Source: a virus (Duplodnaviria; Heunggongvirae; Uroviricota; Caudoviricetes). From it: DNA of 10,273 bases. Positions within the stretch are counted from its first letter, which is position 1. Each line of letters opens with the position of its first letter. A program made the position numbers and the translations under genes. The notes under the pieces were generated by a model, which saw only the letters and a list, made by a program, of their open reading frames with translations, did not search any database and was not told where the DNA came from. Positions 1 to 9,953 of the stretch are shown in pieces. The stretch lies in the IMG/VR virus record IMGVR_UViG_2617270966_000009. The stretch is one strand, 5' to 3'.

Positions 1-1254
1 ATGCCAAAACTCACAGACATGCAGATCCGCGCATGGATAAAGGCCGGGGAGCGATTCGAGGGACGCTCTGACGGTAACGGGCTTTATCTTTCATACCGCG
101 AAAACTACCAGACCCCCGTCTGGCGATTCCGCTATAAATTCGCAGGGAAACCCCGCGCCATGCTGATTGGCTCATATGCCGAGCTATCACTATCAAAGGC
201 CAGAGAGACAGCCAAAGAGCTATCGGCTCGCGTTGCGCTGGGCTATGACGTTGCAGGAGAGAAGCAGAAGCGCAAAACCGAAGCACTGGCGAAGATGGAA
301 GCAGAGAAGAACGCTATGCGCGTTTCAGAGCTTGCCGCTGAATACTTTGAGCGTCAGATCCTCCCGCGCTGGAAGCACCCCGATATACTCCGCCGCCGTA
401 TCGACAAAGATATAAACCCATGCATTGGCAGCATGAAGGTGGAGGACGTGAAGCCGCGCCATATCGACGACATGCTGAAAAGTATTGTTGACCGTGGAGC
501 GCCGACCATAGCAACGGACGTTCTGCGCTGGACACGCCGCATATTTGACTACGGCATTAAGCGGCACGCACTGGAGATTAACCCGTGTTCAGCCTTTGAG
601 GTGGCAGACGCCGGAGGGAAAGAAGTTTCCCGCGACCGCTGGTTAACACGTGGCGAACTAATCCGACTGTTTCAGTCTATGCGCACGGCTAAGGGATTCA
701 GCCGTCAGAACGAAATCACGTTCAAATTACTGTTAGCGTTATGCGTCCGCAAAATGGAGTTATGCGCCGCCCGCTGGGAGGAGTTCGATTTTGATAAAGC
801 CGTATGGCATTTACCAGAGGAACGCAGCAAAAACGGCGACGCTATAGACATCCCATTAGCACCGCCAGCCGTCGAATGGCTGAGAGAGCTTAAAACGTTC
901 TCATGCAACAGCGCATGGGTGCTTCCAGCCAGGAAGATGCAAAACAGAATGATCCCACATATTCAGGAAAGCACTTTACCCGTAGCACTGGCTAAGGTTC
1001 GCGCTGAAATGCCTGATGTGCCTAATTTCACGATTCACGACTTCCGACGCACCGCACGTACTCATTTAGCAGCGCTGGGCGTTGATCCGGTAGTCGCAGA
1101 AAGATGCCTTAATCACAAAATTAAAGGCGTGGAAGGTATCTATAACCGTCACCAGTATTTTGATGAGCGTAAAGCGGCGCTGGCGCAGTGGTGTGATTTG
1201 CTGGTGGCACTGGAAAGCGGAAAAGACTACAACGTAACGCCAATCAGAGCATGA
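1..1254 (+). CDS. int: Tyrosine-type site-specific integrase, phage P4 / CP4-57 family
   Basis: 417-aa ORF. N-terminus (KLTD.QIRAWIKAG...GLYL...WRFRYKF.GK.....GSY..LSL..AR) matches the arm-binding N-terminal domain pattern of P4-like integrases as I recall it. C-terminus carries the catalytic signature HDFRRT ... LNHK ... GIYNRHQY (R-H-R-Y tyrosine recombinase core). ATG at position 1, so the att site and any tRNA target lie upstream, outside the window. Confidence 0.9.
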   Translation: MPKLTDMQIRAWIKAGERFEGRSDGNGLYLSYRENYQTPVWRFRYKFAGKPRAMLIGSYAELSLSKARETAKELSARVALGYDVAGEKQKRKTEALAKMEAEKNAMRVSELAAEYFERQILPRWKHPDILRRRIDKDINPCIGSMKVEDVKPRHIDDMLKSIVDRGAPTIATDVLRWTRRIFDYGIKRHALEINPCSAFEVADAGGKEVSRDRWLTRGELIRLFQSMRTAKGFSRQNEITFKLLLALCVRKMELCAARWEEFDFDKAVWHLPEERSKNGDAIDIPLAPPAVEWLRELKTFSCNSAWVLPARKMQNRMIPHIQESTLPVALAKVRAEMPDVPNFTIHDFRRTARTHLAALGVDPVVAERCLNHKIKGVEGIYNRHQYFDERKAALAQWCDLLVALESGKDYNVTPIRA

Positions 1255-1272: not shown

Positions 1273-2223
1273 ATGAAATTACCTGCGCATAAATATTATT
1301 CTTTGGATAAAGCAGCCAAACTGGCCGGATGTGAAGTATCCGATTTAATACACTATGCAGCAATTGGGGTTTTAGAAATATGTATAAAAATTCCACCTAT
1401 TGAATTGTTTTACCATTACCCCAAAAATGAAGATGCCGACCCAGAATTACTTAAAGTTGAAACAGATAGTATTTTTCATATAGATACAAAAGCAGCACAT
1501 GAGAATTATCTTCTTAATCTGAGCAATGAGGCAGATAATCTCGAATCATATGGCTTATCACCGCTTGATTATAAAAATAGCGATAACCATATGTATTTTA
1601 TGAGGTTTTCATACAAATCAGAACATTTCTCAGTTATAGAGCGATACAATGTTGGGAAGGATGAAAGAGATATCGAAAGATGGAACGGTCTATTAGCAAT
1701 TCCGTCTGCGTTCATAGATAACGATGAGCGGGAGCTATCAGAATGGGATGATTGGGAGATCTCCGTATGCGAACTGACGCCTCCGAGATGTGACGAGTTT
1801 AGCAAATCGAATAATTATGAAATCGGAGCTTTTTATATTGACGGCTGGTATGAAATAAGCCGAAATAAAATGTATATAACTGACTATGAATACAATCTTC
1901 TTATAAATGGAGGAAAATATATTTATGACAGACCCATGCACAAACCACCCGCAAACAAGTTATCCAATGATATAAATACGCTAAAAGTTAATAAACGTGC
2001 CGAACGGTACGCAGTCAATAGGGAGAAACTATTAAAATCTGCAATTTATATACTTAGTAAGTATCCAAATGAATGCAGGGGAGTAAGGAAAGAAATAAGC
2101 CCTGAGAAGTGGCGTGACTGTCTTGTTCGTCATTTAGACGAAGTTCCACCACTTATGATAACTAATGAAGATGTAATTCTTAAACAGCTGCGATCTGCGG
2201 CAAATGGCAAAGTGGATAGTTAA
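1273..2223 (+). CDS. Hypothetical protein, AT-rich orphan gene with putative N-terminal HTH-like segment; function unknown
   Basis: 316-aa ORF starting 19 nt after the int stop, with GAGAGG upstream of the ATG. Composition is clearly more AT-rich than its neighbours (hand count about 38% GC in the first 60 nt versus about 55% at the start of int). N-terminus (YSLDKAAKLAGCEVSDLIHYAAIG) resembles an excisionase/MerR-type helix-turn-helix; the rest is rich in Y/N/K/E/D with no motif I recognise. Followed by a hairpin plus T-run at 2234-2261. Confidence 0.75.
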   Translation: MKLPAHKYYSLDKAAKLAGCEVSDLIHYAAIGVLEICIKIPPIELFYHYPKNEDADPELLKVETDSIFHIDTKAAHENYLLNLSNEADNLESYGLSPLDYKNSDNHMYFMRFSYKSEHFSVIERYNVGKDERDIERWNGLLAIPSAFIDNDERELSEWDDWEISVCELTPPRCDEFSKSNNYEIGAFYIDGWYEISRNKMYITDYEYNLLINGGKYIYDRPMHKPPANKLSNDINTLKVNKRAERYAVNREKLLKSAIYILSKYPNECRGVRKEISPEKWRDCLVRHLDEVPPLMITNEDVILKQLRSAANGKVDS

Positions 2224-2329: not shown

Positions 2330-2533
2330 ATGAACATCGACACTATCCCTACAAAAGGCTATATCAGACGCTTCCGCCTTGCTGAATTGCTGGGCGTTAG
2401 TGTTTCAACCATTGATCGCAAAGTTCGCAGCGGCTCGCTACCGCGCCCGGTAAAGCTGGGGGAGAAGATTACCGCCTTTGATGCGGTAGAGATTAATAAC
2501 TGGCTGGCGGAGCGCCGGGGAAAGGTGGCGTAA
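2330..2533 (+). CDS. alpA: AlpA-family phage transcriptional regulator (HTH_17-type)
   Basis: 67-aa ORF with RBS AAGAGG upstream. LAELLGVSVSTIDRKVRSGSLPRPVKLGEK...AFDAVEINNWLAER matches the AlpA/excisionase-like HTH pattern (ligand-free HTH followed by a conserved W). Position after int is the canonical AlpA location in PICIs and CP4-57-like islands. Confidence 0.85.
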   Translation: MNIDTIPTKGYIRRFRLAELLGVSVSTIDRKVRSGSLPRPVKLGEKITAFDAVEINNWLAERRGKVA

Positions 2534-2979: not shown

Positions 2980-3813
2980 ATGAACATCGAAAAAAGCAGA
3001 TTAATTTCTGAGGCCGCCCCTCATCTGAACGCCTATCAGGGCACAATTAACGGTAATGAATTTGCCGCAATTGTCCCGGTTATTCCTGGTCATATCGGTG
3101 GGCGTGAAACCAATATTGTTAGCGCAAAAGCGTTACACAAAGCGTTGGGCGTGGGAAAAGACTTCTCTACATGGATCACTGATCGCATCTCTGAATATGA
3201 CTTCACCATTGGGCACGATTACTCAGTCCATAAAACAATTTCCCCAAATTTGGGGAAAAGCCCGAATGGCGCGGCTTACAGCAAGATTAAGCAGTCTGGC
3301 AGACCCGGCAAAGACTATCTGTTAAGTGTCGGAATGGCGAAAGAACTGGCAATGATCGAACGCAATGATCAGGGTCGCGCTATCCGCCGTTATTTCATCC
3401 AGTGCGAGGAAGAATTACAGCGTAGCGTGCCTGAAATCGCCGCCCGCTATCGTCGCCAGCTAAAAGCCCGTATCAGTGCCGCAAACAACTTTAAGCCAAT
3501 GTGCGATGCGCTGAATATGGCCCGTGCCGAGATGGGTAAAGCGACGCAGCAGCGCCACTACAGCAACGAGAGCAACATGATCGCCCGTATCGTGCTGGGT
3601 GGCATGACGGCGAAGCAGTGGGCGCAGGCAAATGGCATTACTGGCGAACCACGGGACAGCATGAACGCAGCACAGCTTGAACACCTCGCCTATCTCGAAA
3701 GCACCAATATCACGTTAATTGATATGGGCATGGAATATGAGCAGCGCAAAGGAGAACTCCCCCGCCTGTCGCAACGCTGGCTCGCTAAACGTCTGGAGGT
3801 AAACCATGCGTAA
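2980..3813 (+). CDS. Phage antirepressor / regulatory protein-like (Bro-N / KilA-N / Rha / AntA-type N-terminal domain)
   Basis: 277-aa ORF with RBS GGAGA 7 nt upstream. N-terminal region (NEFAAIVPVIPGHIGG...NIVSAKALHKALGVGKDFSTWITDRI...DYLLSVGMAKELAMIERNDQGRAIRRYFIQCEEEL) has the layout of phage antirepressor-type DNA-binding domains. The exact family cannot be resolved by eye. Confidence 0.7.
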   Translation: MNIEKSRLISEAAPHLNAYQGTINGNEFAAIVPVIPGHIGGRETNIVSAKALHKALGVGKDFSTWITDRISEYDFTIGHDYSVHKTISPNLGKSPNGAAYSKIKQSGRPGKDYLLSVGMAKELAMIERNDQGRAIRRYFIQCEEELQRSVPEIAARYRRQLKARISAANNFKPMCDALNMARAEMGKATQQRHYSNESNMIARIVLGGMTAKQWAQANGITGEPRDSMNAAQLEHLAYLESTNITLIDMGMEYEQRKGELPRLSQRWLAKRLEVNHA

Positions 3814-3988
3814 CCATAATCCGATGCCGGGAAGCCGTTACAAGGACAGTCACGGGGCTGTAGTGACCGTACAGCGCGTCGAGCATAACCGAGTGACCTT
3901 TTACCGCGAGGGCTATCAGTCGCCATGTGTTCAGCCTTTGGAGAGATTCGTTAATGAGTTCGTGGAGGTGCGCCGTGATACTGAATGA
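3806..3988 (+). CDS. Small hypothetical protein (60 aa)
   Basis: ATG at 3806 overlaps the stop of the upstream gene (ATGcgTAA) and is preceded by GGAGGT, suggesting translational coupling. Resembles small conserved prophage proteins, but I cannot name the family with confidence. Confidence 0.5.
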   Translation: MRNHNPMPGSRYKDSHGAVVTVQRVEHNRVTFYREGYQSPCVQPLERFVNEFVEVRRDTE

Positions 3989-4160
3989 ACCTGCCGCCCA
4001 GAAAGAAGCCTTTAATCTGGCTAGCCTGTTAACAAATGTTAACCCTTACAACCTTATAAAACCAAAGGTCGCGAACGGCTGCCTGTTATCAATTGTTATG
4101 GTTAATGACTTAGCAAAACTTAGCCTGAACCTCACAAAACCTGACATCCACGCACGGGGA
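3989..4160 (+). promoter_or_regulatory. Putative promoter/operator region for the downstream replication operon
   Basis: GTTAACAAATGTTAAC at 4028-4043 is two palindromic GTTAAC hexamers spaced exactly 10 bp centre to centre. It is followed by CCTTACAACCTTA and a TATAAA box (4055-4060). No convincing sigma70 -35 at canonical spacing, which would fit an activator-dependent promoter. The call is weak because a long open + frame runs through this region. Confidence 0.3.
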
Positions 4161-4694
4161 ATGACGACAAATGATGACATTTTAAACCAAGAAATAATCA
4201 CCTCTAAAAAGCTGATTGTGGGGAATAAATTCCCCCTGCTGGCTGGTGGTATGAACTGGATTGCTACCGTTGTGAACCGTTCCACATCGACTTTCGCGAC
4301 AAATACGCGTGCGCTGGAAGATTTATTAGGGGTCGTTACGCGAGAAGGTGAGTATTCGGAGTCCATAAAAAAGGGCTTGCCGACTATCGCCAACCCGGTT
4401 TATGGTTATAGCGCACCAGCAAAATCTGGTGCCGGGATTGGCGTCCTGATAATGTTACAGGCGACACATGACGCGCCGAGCGTCTTTTTTTGTGTCCTCG
4501 CATCTGCACACCTCTTTCCCAGCGATATGGCTATAGCCCATATTGCTCAAAAAGTAATGGTGGGCTGGATGGGGGCGGAGCGATCCGCGCCGGTTTCCTG
4601 TAACGCCGGTTACGCCAACCCTGTTCAGCTCACCACCAGTGAAATTGGCGTTTCCGGTGGTGGGAATAAATCCCAGTTACAGGAGGCTGCCATA

Positions 4695-4886
4695 ATGGCT
4701 ACTACCCCTACCCAAAAACCGCAATTTATCTGGATTATCGCAGCAGTTCGCCGCGATATGCCGACAATTACCGCCAAAATTCACCATATCGCCGCAGAGA
4801 CTGAGCAGGAAGCCCGCCGCATTCTGGCGCGGGATCACGTTTGCTTTTTTGCCGGACGTATTCGCACAGGGGGCGCACATGCTTAA
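4695..4886 (+). CDS. Small satellite protein, possibly Icd-like (host cell division inhibitor-like); 5' boundary uncertain
   Basis: Strong AGGAGG 7 nt upstream of ATG 4695 (MATTPTQKPQFIWIIAAVRRDMP...). The same frame is open back to 3927 with in-frame ATGs at 4161, 4527 and 4557, so the true product may be longer or there may be two in-frame products. The upstream segment MVGWMGAERSAPVSCNAGYANPV resembles what I recall of Ash-family proteins; this is unverified. Confidence 0.5.
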   Translation: MATTPTQKPQFIWIIAAVRRDMPTITAKIHHIAAETEQEARRILARDHVCFFAGRIRTGGAHA

Positions 4887-5372: not shown

Positions 5373-5714
5373 ATGATTACTAAAAATTTCCGACTGAATG
5401 CGCTGGCGAATAAGTATGCGTCGGCACTGTATAACCACATTACCTCCACCAGCGGCGGGGACTATTTCATGGTTGATGCGGACGGCCTCGCCGTCCGTGT
5501 GGAAATCGTCAATGGAGTAAAAGGCGTTCGCAGTCTGATCGATAGCTACACACTGGCAGCCATGAAAGTGTCCTACCCGCAGTGGGAAACCGTGGGGGTC
5601 GAGCTTCTTGAGCGTTGCGTCACTAATGACGGATTGACTGACGTCGGGCGTGAGATATGGCAAAGCATGGTTAAAGACATGGGCGCGACCGTGGCAGGAG
5701 GCAACCATGCGTAA
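5373..5714 (+). CDS. Hypothetical protein (113 aa), immediately upstream of and coupled to the primase
   Basis: ATG at 5373 with GAGGGGG RBS (5362-5368). Stop TAA at 5712-5714 overlaps the primase ATG at 5707 (ATGcgTAA). Confidence 0.6.
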   Translation: MITKNFRLNALANKYASALYNHITSTSGGDYFMVDADGLAVRVEIVNGVKGVRSLIDSYTLAAMKVSYPQWETVGVELLERCVTNDGLTDVGREIWQSMVKDMGATVAGGNHA

Positions 5715-8148
5715 TATCGACCTTATCCGCGAAGTGACCAGTGCCGCCGCCGGGCGCTGGCCTTATGTGCTGGCTGGATTGTCTATCGACGTGCCTGATT
5801 CATCGCGCCGCCATTCTCCATGCCCTGCATGTGGTGGAAAAGACCGTTTCAGATTCGACGACAACGGGCGCGGTAGCTTTATCTGCAATCAGTGTGGCGC
5901 TGGTGACGGTTTAGACCTGATTAAGAAGGTGAACAACTGCGACACTACGGAGGCGGCACAGCTTGCCGCTGATGTGCTGGGTATTGATTACCGGGCAGCG
6001 GAAACCGCCCCGGTGGCAGCGAGCCATAGAAGAGAGCAACTGGAAGCTGACCGCCAGCAGCGTGAGCAGGAGCGCCAGAAACAGGCAGCAGAGGATGCAG
6101 AGCAGCGAAGGGCTACGTTTGCCCGTCTGTATGCCGGAATGCGCCAGAGTGCCACACAGGGAGAATCTGATTACCTGCAATCAAAAGGGCTGACCGGGTT
6201 TAACTATCCGGTTATGCCGGATGGTTCGTTATTGCTGGAGCTGGTGGACGAATCCGGCGCAGTGGCAGCAGCGCAAACCATTACACCGCAGGGAGAGAAG
6301 CGACTCCTGACAGGTTCAGCAAAGCGCGGGGCATATCACGCCGTAAACGCACCAGAACAGCCGCAGAGCGTATTAATTGCCGAGGGGCTGGCTACGGCCC
6401 TGTCCGTTCACCTGATGCGCCCGGACGCGCTTACAGTGGCGGCAATTGACGCCGGGAACCTGATCCACGTTGCCAGAGTAATGCGCCGGGAACACCCGCA
6501 GTCGCAAATTATCATTGCCGCAGATAACGACCACCAGCAGGACGAACAGGCGAACACGGGCAAAGATGCCGCAGAGAAAGCCGCCTTATCCGTGGCTGGC
6601 TGGGTGGCGCTGCCGCCGACAGACTACAAAGCCGACTGGGACGACTACCGCCAGCAAAACGGGCTGGAAGTCGCTACGGCTGCGTTTAACGATTCGATGT
6701 ACCAGATTCAGGGGGAAGCCGTGAAACCACAACTACAGGCCATTGTGGGCGGTAAATCCCGCCGTAAAGCCGAAGTCGGAGATATTGCACAAATGGCAGC
6801 CAGCCAGAAAGCGCGGTTGCTTTCATCTCGCTGGGATATGTTGGCGGTCAACCCTGATAGTGGCGCTGTTTACTGCTACGAATCTGGCGTATGGGTGAAG
6901 CTACCAGACAGCGAATTAGAAAGGGTTATGGTGGCAATTTTCGACGAGCACGAAGCCCACTACACCGAAAAAGGGATTAAATCGGTTGTCGCAACCATGA
7001 AGCTGCAAATACCGGTAATTGGTGAGCGGAGCGGGGATCTGATTGGTTTTGATAACGGCGTTTATGACCTCGCTACGCAGACGTTTTCCGCCCATTCGCC
7101 GGGTAACTGGCTGATGAACCACAATGGGATCACCTACACCCCGCCAGCGCTGGGGGAAAATATTACCACCAGCGCCCCCAATTTTACCCGTTGGCTGAAT
7201 CATGCAACGGCTGGCGACCATCATAAGGCCGAGCGTATCAAAGCAGCCTTGTTTATGGTGCTGGCGAAGCGTCACGACTGGCAGCTATTCATTGAGATAA
7301 CTGGCGAGGGCGGCAGTGGGAAATCCGTATTCAGCAGCATAGCAACCACGCTGGCAGGTGAACACAACACCGCCAGCGGTAGCATGATGACGCTGGACAC
7401 CGCACGGGGACGGGCGCAGTTCGTAGGAAAAAGCCTGATTATTATGCCTGACCAGACCCGCTATGTTGGAGAGGGTGCGGGGATTAAAGCCATTACGGGC
7501 GGCGATCCGGTAGAGATTGATGGGAAATATGAAAAGCAGTTCACAACCGTGATAAATGCCGTTGTTATGGCAACCAATAACGAGCCGATGACATTCACGG
7601 AGCGAAACGGGGGCATTGCCCGCCGCCGCGTGATATTCCCGTTTAATAACCCGGTATCAGACGCAGACAAAGACCCGGATTTAACCGCAAAAATCAGGCG
7701 AGAAATCCCGGTGATTATCCGCCACCTGCTAACCACCTTTGCCGACCAGAACAAAGCAAAGGCACTATTACTAGAGCAGCGCGATTCGCAGGAGGCGCTA
7801 GAGGTTAAACGCGGCACGGATCCGGTTGTCGATATGTGTGCGGCGCTTTTTTTCATGAACGAACCCAAAGGCATGATGATGGGCGGAGGTACATGGGCAG
7901 GCCAGCCAGAGCCGAGGACGTATCTTTATCATCTTTATCTGGCGTTTATGGAGTATCACGGTTTGGGTAAACCGCTTTCCGTCAATAAGTTTTCACGCGC
8001 CATAAAATCAGCAGCAAAAGAGTACCGAGCCAGCTACCTGACGAGAAGCATTAACGGCAGAGCGCAAACCAACGTTGGCTATAACGAGAAGGCTGAGGAG
8101 TTCATGCCACGCGCTTACGGTGTGGAGAGCGGGCAGAGTGATGATTGA
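5707..8148 (+). CDS. Replication primase-helicase: primase Zn-ribbon + Toprim + phage/plasmid primase P4-family / D5-like SF3 NTPase
   Basis: Preferred start ATG 5707 with CAGGAGG 5 nt upstream; the track's longer ORF begins at a GTG at 5650 without an RBS. Zn-ribbon CPACGG...CNQCG at 5821-5895. Acidic Toprim-like IIIAADNDHQQDE with DND at 6523-6531. Walker A GEGGSGKS at 7303-7326. Size (813 aa) and domain order match P4 alpha-like and PICI pri-rep proteins. Confidence 0.9.
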   Translation: MRNIDLIREVTSAAAGRWPYVLAGLSIDVPDSSRRHSPCPACGGKDRFRFDDNGRGSFICNQCGAGDGLDLIKKVNNCDTTEAAQLAADVLGIDYRAAETAPVAASHRREQLEADRQQREQERQKQAAEDAEQRRATFARLYAGMRQSATQGESDYLQSKGLTGFNYPVMPDGSLLLELVDESGAVAAAQTITPQGEKRLLTGSAKRGAYHAVNAPEQPQSVLIAEGLATALSVHLMRPDALTVAAIDAGNLIHVARVMRREHPQSQIIIAADNDHQQDEQANTGKDAAEKAALSVAGWVALPPTDYKADWDDYRQQNGLEVATAAFNDSMYQIQGEAVKPQLQAIVGGKSRRKAEVGDIAQMAASQKARLLSSRWDMLAVNPDSGAVYCYESGVWVKLPDSELERVMVAIFDEHEAHYTEKGIKSVVATMKLQIPVIGERSGDLIGFDNGVYDLATQTFSAHSPGNWLMNHNGITYTPPALGENITTSAPNFTRWLNHATAGDHHKAERIKAALFMVLAKRHDWQLFIEITGEGGSGKSVFSSIATTLAGEHNTASGSMMTLDTARGRAQFVGKSLIIMPDQTRYVGEGAGIKAITGGDPVEIDGKYEKQFTTVINAVVMATNNEPMTFTERNGGIARRRVIFPFNNPVSDADKDPDLTAKIRREIPVIIRHLLTTFADQNKAKALLLEQRDSQEALEVKRGTDPVVDMCAALFFMNEPKGMMMGGGTWAGQPEPRTYLYHLYLAFMEYHGLGKPLSVNKFSRAIKSAAKEYRASYLTRSINGRAQTNVGYNEKAEEFMPRAYGVESGQSDD

Positions 8149-8164
8149 AACTTTTACGGCGGCA

Positions 8165-8415
8165 CTTATCCCTACTGCCCTACTAAAAACGAGACGAGGC
8201 CAGACGTAGCAAGGCTTTAAACTAGGTAGGGATATATATTTTTATCCCTACTTATCCCTACATATCCCTACCAAATAAAACAGGCAGTAAAATGCCGTTG
8301 AAGTGATTTAGTAGGGATAAGTAGGGTTATGTAGGGCAACAAAATTGAATGCCTACCAGTCTGAAAGCCTTGCCATTCGTGGCATGAGCCAGTTAGTAGG
8401 GATTGGTAGGGATAT
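8165..8415. repeat. Iteron cluster, putative origin of replication of the element
   Basis: At least 11 copies of a GTAGGG(A/T)T-type motif, mostly in phased arrays with exact 10-bp spacing. Minus-orientation copies (CCCTAC) at 8170-8175, 8178-8183 and three tandem TATCCCTAC at 8244-8272. Plus-orientation copies at 8226-8232, three at 8311-8336 and two at 8396-8411. Located directly downstream of the primase-helicase gene, the canonical ori position in PICIs. Confidence 0.7.
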
Positions 8416-8485
8416 TACACCCCCAAAAAGATTCTATGGGGGGGTGAGCTTAAAACGAAACTTGTCAAAACTTGACACACAGAAC

Positions 8486-8520
8486 GATGCCAGCAGCTAC
8501 TGAGCGGCGGCATTTTTTTG
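8486..8520 (+). terminator. Possible weak terminator downstream of the primase operon
   Basis: Short imperfect stem (ATGCC ... GGCAT) followed by a run of seven T at 8514-8520. The stem is weak, so this is tentative. Confidence 0.25.
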
Positions 8521-8582
8521 TGCTATTTGTTTCATATTTTGCAATTACGGTGATAAATATTGCTATTTGTGAAACTATAATA
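8518..8582 (+). promoter_or_regulatory. Putative promoter with flanking direct repeats upstream of the small-protein / metallopeptidase operon
   Basis: Perfect -10 hexamer TATAAT at 8576-8581. Exact 10-mer direct repeat TGCTATTTGT at 8521-8530 and 8561-8570 (40 bp apart), a candidate operator. The -35 is not obvious. A consensus TTGACA also occurs at 8471-8476. Confidence 0.35.
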
Positions 8583-8613
8583 ACTGTTGTTTTATACAGT
8601 TCTAAGGGGCGTT

Positions 8614-8787
8614 ATGGCTATTTCAGTAAAGCCGGTATTGATAAGTGAGAAGCAAATGGAAGCGATAAAGAAAATTCAGGAGGAGCAGCGTAAAAAATCA
8701 GAGGTAGGAGTTGCGCCAACGATCCACGAAATTGCTCGGGGATTAATGGATAAGGCGCTGGCCTCACTGGCAAGCGAGGGCGCGTAA
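8614..8787 (+). CDS. Small protein (57 aa), possible ribbon-helix-helix-type DNA-binding protein / antitoxin-like
   Basis: ATG at 8614 with AAGGGG RBS; the track's longer ORF begins at a TTG at 8587. Predicted short N-terminal strand (SVKPVLISEKQ) followed by helical segments. Stop TAA overlaps the ATG of the next gene (TAATG at 8785-8789). The fold assignment is an inference, not a motif match. Confidence 0.5.
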   Translation: MAISVKPVLISEKQMEAIKKIQEEQRKKSEVGVAPTIHEIARGLMDKALASLASEGA

Positions 8788-9458
8788 TGGGCGCCATTCA
8801 CCAGATATATGAGCATGAAATGTTCTATAACTGGATAGGTGATGGTAAACGATGTGTAGCATTCCACGAAGCGGGACATGCAGTAGCTGCATGGCTTATT
8901 CGCTTAGATATACAGGTTATCGCCGTTATGGATGAATACGGTTACGTTGCTGGCGAACATGTACATGAGGCCAAGTGTTTGGGCGTTGTTAAACACAGCA
9001 TAATTCACAGCCACGATCTCGGGCGTTTGCGGGATAGTAAATCTGGTGTAGTTGGGCAGAATGGTAAAGTTATCCCTTTCATACGTTACTATGCGGATGG
9101 TATAAAGCGCGATGCAAAAAAGGCCGCTTTTGTATCCCTCGCCGGACCAGTAAGCGAAGCCCTTTACGAAAACAACGATATTTTCAACAAAAAGTATTCG
9201 CTACCTCATCGCTATGACATGGCTAACGTAAATGACATGCTCGATTTAATCTGCGCTACAGATAAGCAAATTAACAGGGAGTTAATGCTTTCTAAACTCG
9301 TTGAAAAGACCAAAGCCCTCATGGCTCAATACTGGTATGAAGTAGAAAAAATAGCGCATTTGCTTGAACGGGATAGCATTGTGAATGGTCGAAATGTTAG
9401 CTCGTTAATTGGCATCAACGTCATAGACCGGGCAACGCCATTTTTGCTGGTGGAATAA
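8787..9458 (+). CDS. Standalone zinc metallopeptidase-like protein with HEAGH motif (FtsH/M41-like or ImmA-like active site)
   Basis: 223-aa ORF, translationally coupled to the upstream small gene. Contains VAFHEAGHAVAAWL (HEAGH encoded at 8865-8879), which closely resembles the FtsH peptidase M41 zinc-binding site; acidic residues downstream could supply the third ligand. No AAA+ ATPase domain is present. GC content is visibly lower than the replication genes. Confidence 0.7.
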   Translation: MGAIHQIYEHEMFYNWIGDGKRCVAFHEAGHAVAAWLIRLDIQVIAVMDEYGYVAGEHVHEAKCLGVVKHSIIHSHDLGRLRDSKSGVVGQNGKVIPFIRYYADGIKRDAKKAAFVSLAGPVSEALYENNDIFNKKYSLPHRYDMANVNDMLDLICATDKQINRELMLSKLVEKTKALMAQYWYEVEKIAHLLERDSIVNGRNVSSLIGINVIDRATPFLLVE

Positions 9459-9671
9459 CTCCCGACCAAACTCATTCGATGATTCATTTCTCCACGGGTA
9501 AGCTATGCCGGTAGACCTAACTCCGCAGTATTACCGGAATCAGCCAGGCTACAGGCACACAGGAGGCCACGCAACACAATCCGCGCCTGGATGGGAGTTA
9601 TATAATACCCCTGATGATTTTGACCAACGCCCACCATTCGACGATGAAACGCCATTCTGGGGGAGATAAAC

Positions 9672-9953
9672 ATGGTAAACGACAGTAAAGCCGAGGATCT
9701 GGAAGCAAAAGGGCTGTACCGACGCGCCGCAGCGCGATGGATGGAAGTCATGCTGTTATGCACCGAGGACGATGATCGGGAATGGATAAAGCGCCGCCGT
9801 GAAACGTGTCTTGAGAACGTGAAGCGCCCGCCCGTGAAGGCTGAGGACTTTGGCGACCTGCATAAAGCTGTTACCGAAACGCAACACCGCATGGGGATAG
9901 CGCAACCGAACGGTAACGCCTTCCGGTTAAATGGCGGCAATAGGCAAAGGTAG
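9672..9953 (+). CDS. PerC/Pch-like small transcriptional regulator (tentative)
   Basis: 93-aa ORF with GGGGGAG RBS. AEDLEAKGLYRRAAARWMEVM...REWIKRRRETC resembles the conserved core I recall from PerC-family (Pch) regulators encoded on prophage-like elements. Followed by a strong terminator. Confidence 0.55.
   Translation: MVNDSKAEDLEAKGLYRRAAARWMEVMLLCTEDDDREWIKRRRETCLENVKRPPVKAEDFGDLHKAVTETQHRMGIAQPNGNAFRLNGGNRQR

Follow-up and report, generated by a model that had tools for sequence, protein, structure and literature searches.

The question raised by this locus is whether two overlapping genes, which lie directly behind the replication origin of a phage satellite, work together as one module, and what a stand-alone metallopeptidase would do in such a place. 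In this work, the window, i.e. the whole stretch of 10,273 nucleotides (nt) of the Caudoviricetes record IMGVR_UViG_2617270966_000009, was analysed with emphasis on a small gene and the larger peptidase gene that follows it (Table 1). An earlier note, made from the sequence alone, had described two genes overlapping by TAATG, lower in GC content than the backbone and situated downstream of the origin, and had offered three readings: an ImmR/ImmA-like regulator-protease switch, a toxin-antitoxin-like pair, or a protease-based effector in phage conflict. The description holds, as the open reading frames (ORFs) 8614-8787 and 8787-9458 share one base in TAATG, the GC content is 0.42-0.47 across 8400-9600 as against 0.51-0.59 in the primase and PerC flanks, and the iterons of the origin (8164-8415) lie upstream. 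The idea of a dedicated two-gene module does not, because the small gene, referred to below as the leader gene, has no peptidase beside it in 24 fetched loci and about 500 E. coli genomes, and five loci have a peptidase of this subfamily but no leader. Taken as a whole, we consider it moderately probable that the pair is a satellite operon made by recombination and linked to the SOS response, which carries an M41 protease as cargo with a role in conflict.

The product of the larger gene, 223 amino acids (aa) long, is, by its motif, predicted fold and conserved positions, a protease domain of the M41 (FtsH) family with an intact catalytic site and without an AAA+ module or a membrane anchor. 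The motif FHEAGHAV occupies residues 26-33, with HEAGH at residues 27-31 (codons 8865-8879), and it is conserved: all of 15 close and 20 distant homologues have H27, E28 and H31, and G30 is nearly invariant among the distant ones. Across the superfamily (18-47% identity) the invariant positions are H27, E28, H31, G52, G120 and D144. The superfamily profile matches T. thermophilus FtsH with an E-value of 9e-16 and places the D144 column on the aspartate of GAENDF, which we take to be the third zinc ligand of FtsH; D144 was counted as the third-ligand aspartate that M41 peptidases have about 70-80 residues after the motif. The fold of the 223-aa protein is that of the M41 protease domain, and the FtsH protease domain 2di4 is among its matches. 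The note's description of an FtsH/M41-type zinc site without an ATPase is thus upheld by motif, fold and aspartate position, and the gene is under purifying selection (ratio of nonsynonymous to synonymous substitution rates, dN/dS, 0.17-0.29). With FtsH the protein shares only 14-17% identity over the aligned core, and it has a subfamily-specific insertion of about 45 residues (about 58-100), partly modelled at low confidence. No AAA match was found in Pfam or NCBIfam, and HEAGH starts already at residue 27 of the 223; no transmembrane anchor is evident in the 26 polar residues before the motif (MGAIHQIYEHEMFYNWIGDGKRCVAF), for which no dedicated transmembrane predictor was used. Among the profiles that had been proposed for the pair, Peptidase_M41 (PF01434) gave a motif match below threshold, with 21.2 bits against a gathering cut-off of 29.9 and 20 residues matched, and this cut-off is passed by distant stand-alone relatives, e.g. 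with 40 and 48.5 bits. The M78/COG2856 profile (PF06114) has no match in the 223-aa protein, and no ribbon-helix-helix (RHH) profile matched.

The identity of the domain is not new, given that RefSeq already names some copies 'peptidase M41 family protein'. Both genes are annotated there, and some records start the larger one at the internal ATG 8820, which gives 212 aa. On the other hand, no published description was found of the architecture of the protease domain alone, of its residence in satellites or of the size of the stand-alone family, and the literature on M41 in defence, on stand-alone FtsH domains and on M41 in prophages contained no description of this protein that we could find. 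The number of stand-alone M41 clusters is at least 2375 at the 50% identity level and at least 3879 at the 90% level. Searches with tblastn found no copy of either protein in 50,697 phage records and no copy of the peptidase in 72,556 plasmids, and on this ground an origin from a phage or plasmid was rejected. In BFVD, giant-virus FtsH proteins and one stand-alone M41 protein of an uncultured phage were the only entries found.

The smaller gene has a different history. When positions 8450-9500 were compared with 5426 complete E. coli genomes (megablast), 26 of them proved to have the full pair of the window type, whereas about 500 match positions 8458-8762 alone, a stretch made up of terminator, promoter and the leader's first 50 or so codons. 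Counted in whatever arrangement, the peptidase is present in 53 of the 5426 (about 1%). Downstream of the leader, the 500 or so genomes encode DUF2824, 'phage DNA ejection' and 'injection' proteins. This cassette head, consisting of the terminator, the TATAAT promoter and a leader gene of 53-66 aa, is present in about 10% of complete E. coli genomes; among the fetched loci it was seen in L002, L003, L005, L009-L014 and L028-L042. In about ten other enterobacterial genera, a leader homologue stands behind the same promoter architecture, after the primase and origin module, and the slot behind it is filled as follows: Serratia and Escherichia have P22 Inj_translocase and gp16/SLT proteins, Klebsiella and Leclercia have SLT-containing internal proteins (873-888 aa), Pantoea, Erwinia and Chimaeribacter have tape-measure proteins (857-1188 aa), Rahnella has a baseplate hub, and Raoultella has a protein of 605-608 aa that is similar to an injection transglycosylase. 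The leader is a generic operon leader, a conserved element of the backbone and not the partner of the peptidase. The cargo is swapped at a junction within the 3' end of the leader gene across enterobacterial satellites of the PICI (phage-inducible chromosomal island) type. No description of this slot was found in the literature on PICI immune cargo or on satellites with ejection or tape-measure proteins.

The leader gene is itself under purifying selection (dN/dS 0.04-0.22). Its 57-aa product has no helix-turn-helix (HTH) or RHH profile match and no credible match in Pfam, NCBIfam, PHROGs or PADLOC; the search of PADLOC-DB 2.0 and the profile libraries gave a chance-level match to Csa5/Cas11a alone (E-values 0.017 to 0.062). 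The predicted shape, an extended N-terminus followed by two helices, is compatible with an RHH monomer, and the fold is possibly RHH.

How the peptidase came to stand behind this leader can be read from the composition of the leader gene, whose codons 1 to about 48 belong to the leader lineage and whose last seven codons (SLASEGA) belong to the lineage of the peptidase cassette. The operon of the window is, as the alignment indicates, a chimera in which a crossover in the 3' end of the leader gene joined the leader to the peptidase cassette. On the other side, the similarity to the cassette stops at 9525 for strain FWSEC0003 and at 9522 for Dickeya. Homologues of the peptidase with 46-99% identity occur in five arrangements. 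The window type consists of an own promoter, the small gene and M41. In L018, L019 and L021 the order is protein X, p62, the small gene, a tail-completion protein and M41, and in L006, L007, L017, L020 and L022 it is X, a p62 homologue and M41, with no homologue of the small protein. In Dickeya, the small gene has collapsed to 'M...VKPV' (about nine codons), fused in frame with a peptidase whose HEAGH is intact. The TAATG coupling is retained in L004, L015, L016, L061 and L062, and in L006 with a different upstream gene.

A block of two genes and a further single gene keep company with the peptidase elsewhere. The X-p62 block (L004 3633-4385; L061 8091-8844; L062 6092-6844; L015 5080-5844; L017 5181-5907) encodes protein X of 183-187 aa, which is 61-72% identical across contexts and has no match in Pfam, PHROGs, NCBIfam or PADLOC, and p62 of 55-62 aa. 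The block stands beside the peptidase in most arrangements, not in the window, and may be the real functional partner of the peptidase. The second is a lipoprotein-like gene (L004 5290-6348; L008 8795-9853; L025 6638-7744; L062 about 7719-9176), which encodes a protein of 352-368 aa with a lipoprotein-type signal peptide (…LTGCTAGK) and without a match in any profile library, including PADLOC. It follows M41-like peptidases that are 22-90% identical to that of the window (22% for the one in L025), and it was found in 13 of the 53 peptidase-bearing E. coli genomes and in Dickeya. The 352-aa form was rejected as an obligate partner, because the window and about 40 further peptidase-bearing E. 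coli genomes lack it. In related islands, the equivalent slot is taken by distant M41-like genes (22-28% identity); in L023-L025 such a gene is followed by a 116-aa signal-peptide protein or by the lipoprotein-like protein. Mini-M41 genes are also found in a defence-island-like neighbourhood and beside integrases; in high-GC viral contigs the calling of ORFs was too naive for reliable counts of the neighbourhoods of mini-M41 genes. Two M41-like genes (196 and 188 aa) stand in tandem on one viral contig (L026/L027 5857-7138, the same as L047/L049), which suggests duplication or the formation of hetero-oligomers in some lineages.

The control of the operon was examined from its upstream region. 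The terminator behind the origin, kept in sister islands, is predicted to insulate the two genes from the replication module. The perfect TATAAT reported in the earlier note is present, although a sigma-70 scan does not call it, since there is no acceptable -35 element 16-18 nt upstream. The two direct 10-mer repeats of TGCTATTTGT are likewise present as exact copies, while the operator role proposed for them finds no support in relatives: with up to one mismatch there are three matches in the window, and seven of 200 shuffled sequences do as well, so the repeat is weakly beyond chance, and the second copy is altered to TGCGATTTGT or TGCGTTTTAT in sister islands. The cross-genus alignment of upstream regions ruled the repeats out as a conserved element. 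What this alignment of about ten genera does retain is TATAAT, exactly 2 nt, CTGT...CAG and then the ribosome-binding site. The corresponding element in the window is a candidate LexA box, which overlaps the expected transcription start and contains CTGTTGTTTTATACAG, the sole CTGT-N8-ACAG in the 10-kb window (0.07 expected). Its heterology index is 5.0, compared with 0.3-9.8 for the training sites and 8.9 for the best of 100 shuffled sequences, values which are approximate; the matrix is based on 19 LexA sites of E. coli. In a scan of about 280 kb of related loci, this index picks out the neighbouring dinD box and hardly any other site. The box has the same position in all sister islands, and the LexA-type spacing is retained in the Escherichia loci, one Serratia lineage, two Pantoea species and Lonsdalea. 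From these features we infer that the operon of the window island is under SOS control, with expression timed to the induction of a helper prophage. A second LexA-box-like site, CATTGTATATCTATACAGCT at 2261-2280, has a heterology index of 6.8 and precedes the AlpA-like gene by about 50 nt; no site of similar score was found in the other scanned loci, few of which include the region upstream of an AlpA gene.

We hypothesize the following course of events. The operon sits in the accessory slot directly after the origin of a PICI-type satellite between yicC and dinD, where a cassette head that drives helper-type DNA-delivery virion proteins in sister islands would here drive an M41 domain. LexA would repress the operon, and DNA damage would switch it on when the helper prophage is induced, and translational coupling with the leader would then yield the peptidase. 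Having no unfoldase, the peptidase would act independently of ATP, as an endopeptidase that cuts one target or a few within a segment that is exposed or disordered. The target would most likely be a phage protein or a host protein relevant to phages, so that the peptidase would serve as an interference or defence effector carried as satellite cargo, and the leader protein would be neither an antitoxin nor an obligate substrate of the peptidase. A function in conflict is suggested by the sporadic distribution of the peptidase, the mobility of its cassette, its absence from phages and the company of secreted or lipoprotein 'moron'-like genes, and also by the mobile or defence-like contexts of the distant M41 relatives. 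We put this function forward tentatively, as a serious possibility that falls somewhat short of being probable; among the three readings of the earlier note, a protease effector in phage conflict is the most plausible.

Several observations weigh against this picture. In the relatives that bear capsid genes (L015-L022) the peptidase heads the morphogenesis operon, and in most islands the slot is filled by virion proteins; such a position and such cargo fit a role in the satellite life cycle as well as a role in defence. The peptidase has no match in PADLOC-DB 2.0, nor have 20 members of its superfamily, and it has no match in PHROGs. The AlphaFold2 model is of low confidence at residues 1-17 and 49-76, which leaves the substrate-binding region without a confident model. 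As to the SOS link, the heterology values are approximate, as stated, and most other genera carry a variant of the box that is 1 nt shorter and scores poorly.

The main rival is a role in the life cycle of the satellite, in which the M41 peptidase would process a virion or DNA-delivery protein of the helper or the satellite, or a morphogenetic factor, as part of the programme of hijacking or packaging. In L015, L016 and L018-L022 the peptidase is flanked by the replication module on one side and by DUF2280/terS-like, capsid and neck genes on the other, following the tail-completion gene in L018; the slot behind the leader in sister islands always holds DNA-delivery proteins, and the peptidase is co-oriented, translationally coupled and probably induced together with the helper. 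However, the window island, E2348/69 and FWSEC0003 carry the peptidase without structural genes, and its position varies between islands, adjoining the integrase in E2348/69. Moreover, none of the phage records searched encodes it, and it is about ten times rarer in E. coli genomes than the leader (about 1% against about 10%). We judge this role to be unlikely.

Quite unlikely, and clearly below the life-cycle role, is a switch of the ImmR/ImmA type, in which the small protein represses the operon and the peptidase cleaves, on a signal, either the small protein or the repressor of the helper phage. Some distant relatives are arranged as such a switch would be: the mini-M41 gene of L066 is preceded, with a 4-nt overlap, by an Xre-type HTH gene near an excisionase-like gene and an integrase, those of L044 and L057 are preceded with the same overlap by proteins that look HTH_17-like and RHH-like by eye, and the family member P0302 is a fusion of HTH_17 and M41. 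The shape predicted for the small protein, compatible with an RHH monomer, and the conserved TAATG coupling also agree with it. The pairing is not constant, however, as the leader stands without a peptidase in the loci and genomes counted above, the peptidase subfamily stands without the leader in five loci, and the leader has collapsed in Dickeya. The peptidase does not belong to M78/COG2856, the small protein has no detected HTH or RHH signal, and the pairing in the window was made by recombination. An obligate switch is thus disfavoured by the inconstant pairing and the crossover-made arrangement. The five loci without the small gene, the collapse in Dickeya and the crossover also argue against a toxin-antitoxin pair.

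The remaining two readings are the least likely, and we regard both as very improbable. A type II toxin-antitoxin-like pair, with a toxic peptidase neutralised by the small protein, would agree with a small upstream gene overlapping a larger enzyme gene, with sporadic distribution and with the mobile context, but co-occurrence is not obligate in either direction (24 loci with the small gene only, five with the peptidase only), the small gene is far commoner than the peptidase, the Dickeya peptidase keeps HEAGH next to a small gene cut to about nine codons and fused in frame, and the pairing in the window is a recent chimera. The domain could alternatively mimic or poison host FtsH, by co-assembling or competing with it, and so shift the stability of regulators of the CII/CIII type and steer the helper between lysis and lysogeny; FtsH controls lambdoid CII/CIII, the fold is shared with the hexamer-forming FtsH protease domain, and the isolated domain (2di4) presumably oligomerises on its own, but the identity of 14-17% over the aligned core, together with the 45-residue insertion and different termini, makes co-assembly doubtful.

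The conflict effector that we prefer can be compared with several known proteases. Unlike FtsH, a housekeeping gene, the peptidase of the window is encoded on a phage satellite, lacks an AAA+ unfoldase and a transmembrane anchor, and has 223 aa including the insertion of about 45 residues. Like ImmA, IrrE and CapP (M78, COG2856), it is a small HExxH metallopeptidase on a mobile element, whose gene directly follows a small one and for which a link to DNA damage is plausible, and some distant mini-M41 genes follow an Xre-type HTH gene; it differs from these modules in that the family is not M78, the upstream protein has no detectable HTH and the pairing is not constant. The Lit protease of the e14 element (peptidase U49) is a single-gene abortive-infection system based on a zinc protease, and it shows that a protease can lie dormant and then attack one specific target when a phage infects. 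The peptidase of the window shares with Lit the HExxH motif of a zinc protease, the stand-alone form and the residence in an integrated element related to phages, and differs from it by the lack of sequence or profile similarity, with no U49 match in Pfam.

Table 1. Positions of the features discussed, from the left to the right end of the window.
Feature	Position	Strand	Remarks
Tyrosine integrase	1-1254		
316-aa ORF	1273-2223		Between integrase and AlpA-like gene
AlpA-like HTH protein	2330-2533		Presumed master regulator of island induction
AntA/AntB-family protein	2980-3813		
319-aa ORF, Icd-like C-terminus	3927-4886		GTG start
P4-family primase	5650-8148		
Replication-origin iterons GTAGGGATA / TATCCCTAC	8164-8415		Both orientations; after primase gene; repeat families D1-D3, inverted pairs I1-I22
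Intrinsic terminator, hairpin and U7	8486-8519	+	Free energy (dG) -20.4 kcal/mol, z -4.95; 0/200 shuffles as stable
TGCTATTTGT, two exact copies	8521-8530 and 8561-8570	+	Operator proposed in the earlier note
Perfect -10 hexamer TATAAT	8576-8581	+	Kept across about ten genera
Candidate LexA (SOS) box AACTGTTGTTTTATACAGTT	8582-8601		CTGT-N8-ACAG at 8584-8599; begins 2 nt after -10
57-aa leader protein gene	8614-8787	+	ATG start; AAGGGG Shine-Dalgarno 8604-8609
Crossover CTGGC	8758-8762	+	Leader lineage to 8757, X-block lineage from 8763; four-way alignment, similarity breakpoints
TAATG stop/start overlap	8785-8789	+	One shared base; GAGG Shine-Dalgarno 7 nt upstream
Stand-alone M41 (FtsH-type) zinc metallopeptidase domain, 223 aa	8787-9458	+	
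Codon of invariant Asp144	9216-9218		
Right flank of mobile peptidase cassette	9459-9525	+	
54-aa ORF	9505-9669	+	C-terminus FDDETPF
PerC-family regulator	9672-9953		

The rest of the window (Table 1) identifies the carrier. The window is a phage-satellite-type island of the PICI type, in one arm-to-arm stretch: it combines an integrase, an AlpA-type regulator, a primase/replicase and an iteron origin, has no lysis or tail genes, is of the size range of about 10-15 kb and has a fixed attachment site, and in complete E. coli genomes the identical DNA is situated between yicC and dinD. The layout equals that of EcCIMP1, an E. coli PICI mobilised by helper phage Kapi1 in experiments (PMC11773190). 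The accessory region after pri in PICIs was reported to hold Tai immune genes (PMC11364771), and the variable cargo of the window likewise follows the primase and origin module, as in the accessory (immunity) regions of both reports (PMC11364771, PMC11773190). Neither of these describes an M41 domain as cargo, and no description of the leader gene, the LexA-like box or the DNA-delivery cargo of sister islands was found in them.

Some observations on the other genes are added here. The 316-aa ORF has no match in NCBIfam or PADLOC. The C-terminal part of the AntA/AntB-family protein matched the PADLOC candidate defence model PDC-S22 (E-value 4.5e-11), and its gene is disrupted by IS903B in strain FLI21. 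In the 319-aa ORF the match to the Icd-like cell-division-inhibitor domain is limited to the last 48 or so residues, and the N-terminal 260 or so are without assignment. Several small ORFs lie between this gene and the primase, and a 61-aa ORF after the PerC gene closes the right end of the window. The FDDETPF end of the 54-aa ORF resembles the acidic tip of the single-stranded DNA-binding protein (SSB), and positions 9560-9668 align with the 3' end of the SSB-like gene of L024, a locus that has the primase end, the iterons and the right end in common with the window; this ORF looks like the remnant of an SSB C-terminus left by mosaic recombination, outside the pair.

A wider proposal can be formulated, although we consider it somewhat unlikely at its full breadth. 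Stand-alone M41 domains would be proteases that cut at specific sites without ATP and that serve in conflicts among phages, satellites and hosts, and together they would make up a large class so far unrecognised. The one described here would be an SOS-induced weapon that cleaves either a host factor on which the phage depends or a protein of a helper or competitor phage, such as a regulator or a DNA-delivery protein, and the leader slot would be a plug-in site at which DNA-delivery proteins and effectors are exchanged by recombination within the leader gene.

In any case, the locus teaches that two genes on a mobile element may overlap by stop and start codon without forming a functional two-component system. 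If the protease does act on a phage or host target, it would represent a new enzyme class in the anti-phage repertoire of satellites and would provide a handle on the large stand-alone M41 family, for which no published function was found. Furthermore, a conserved and probably SOS-controlled cargo slot bears on how satellites adapt to different helpers and evade superinfection exclusion.

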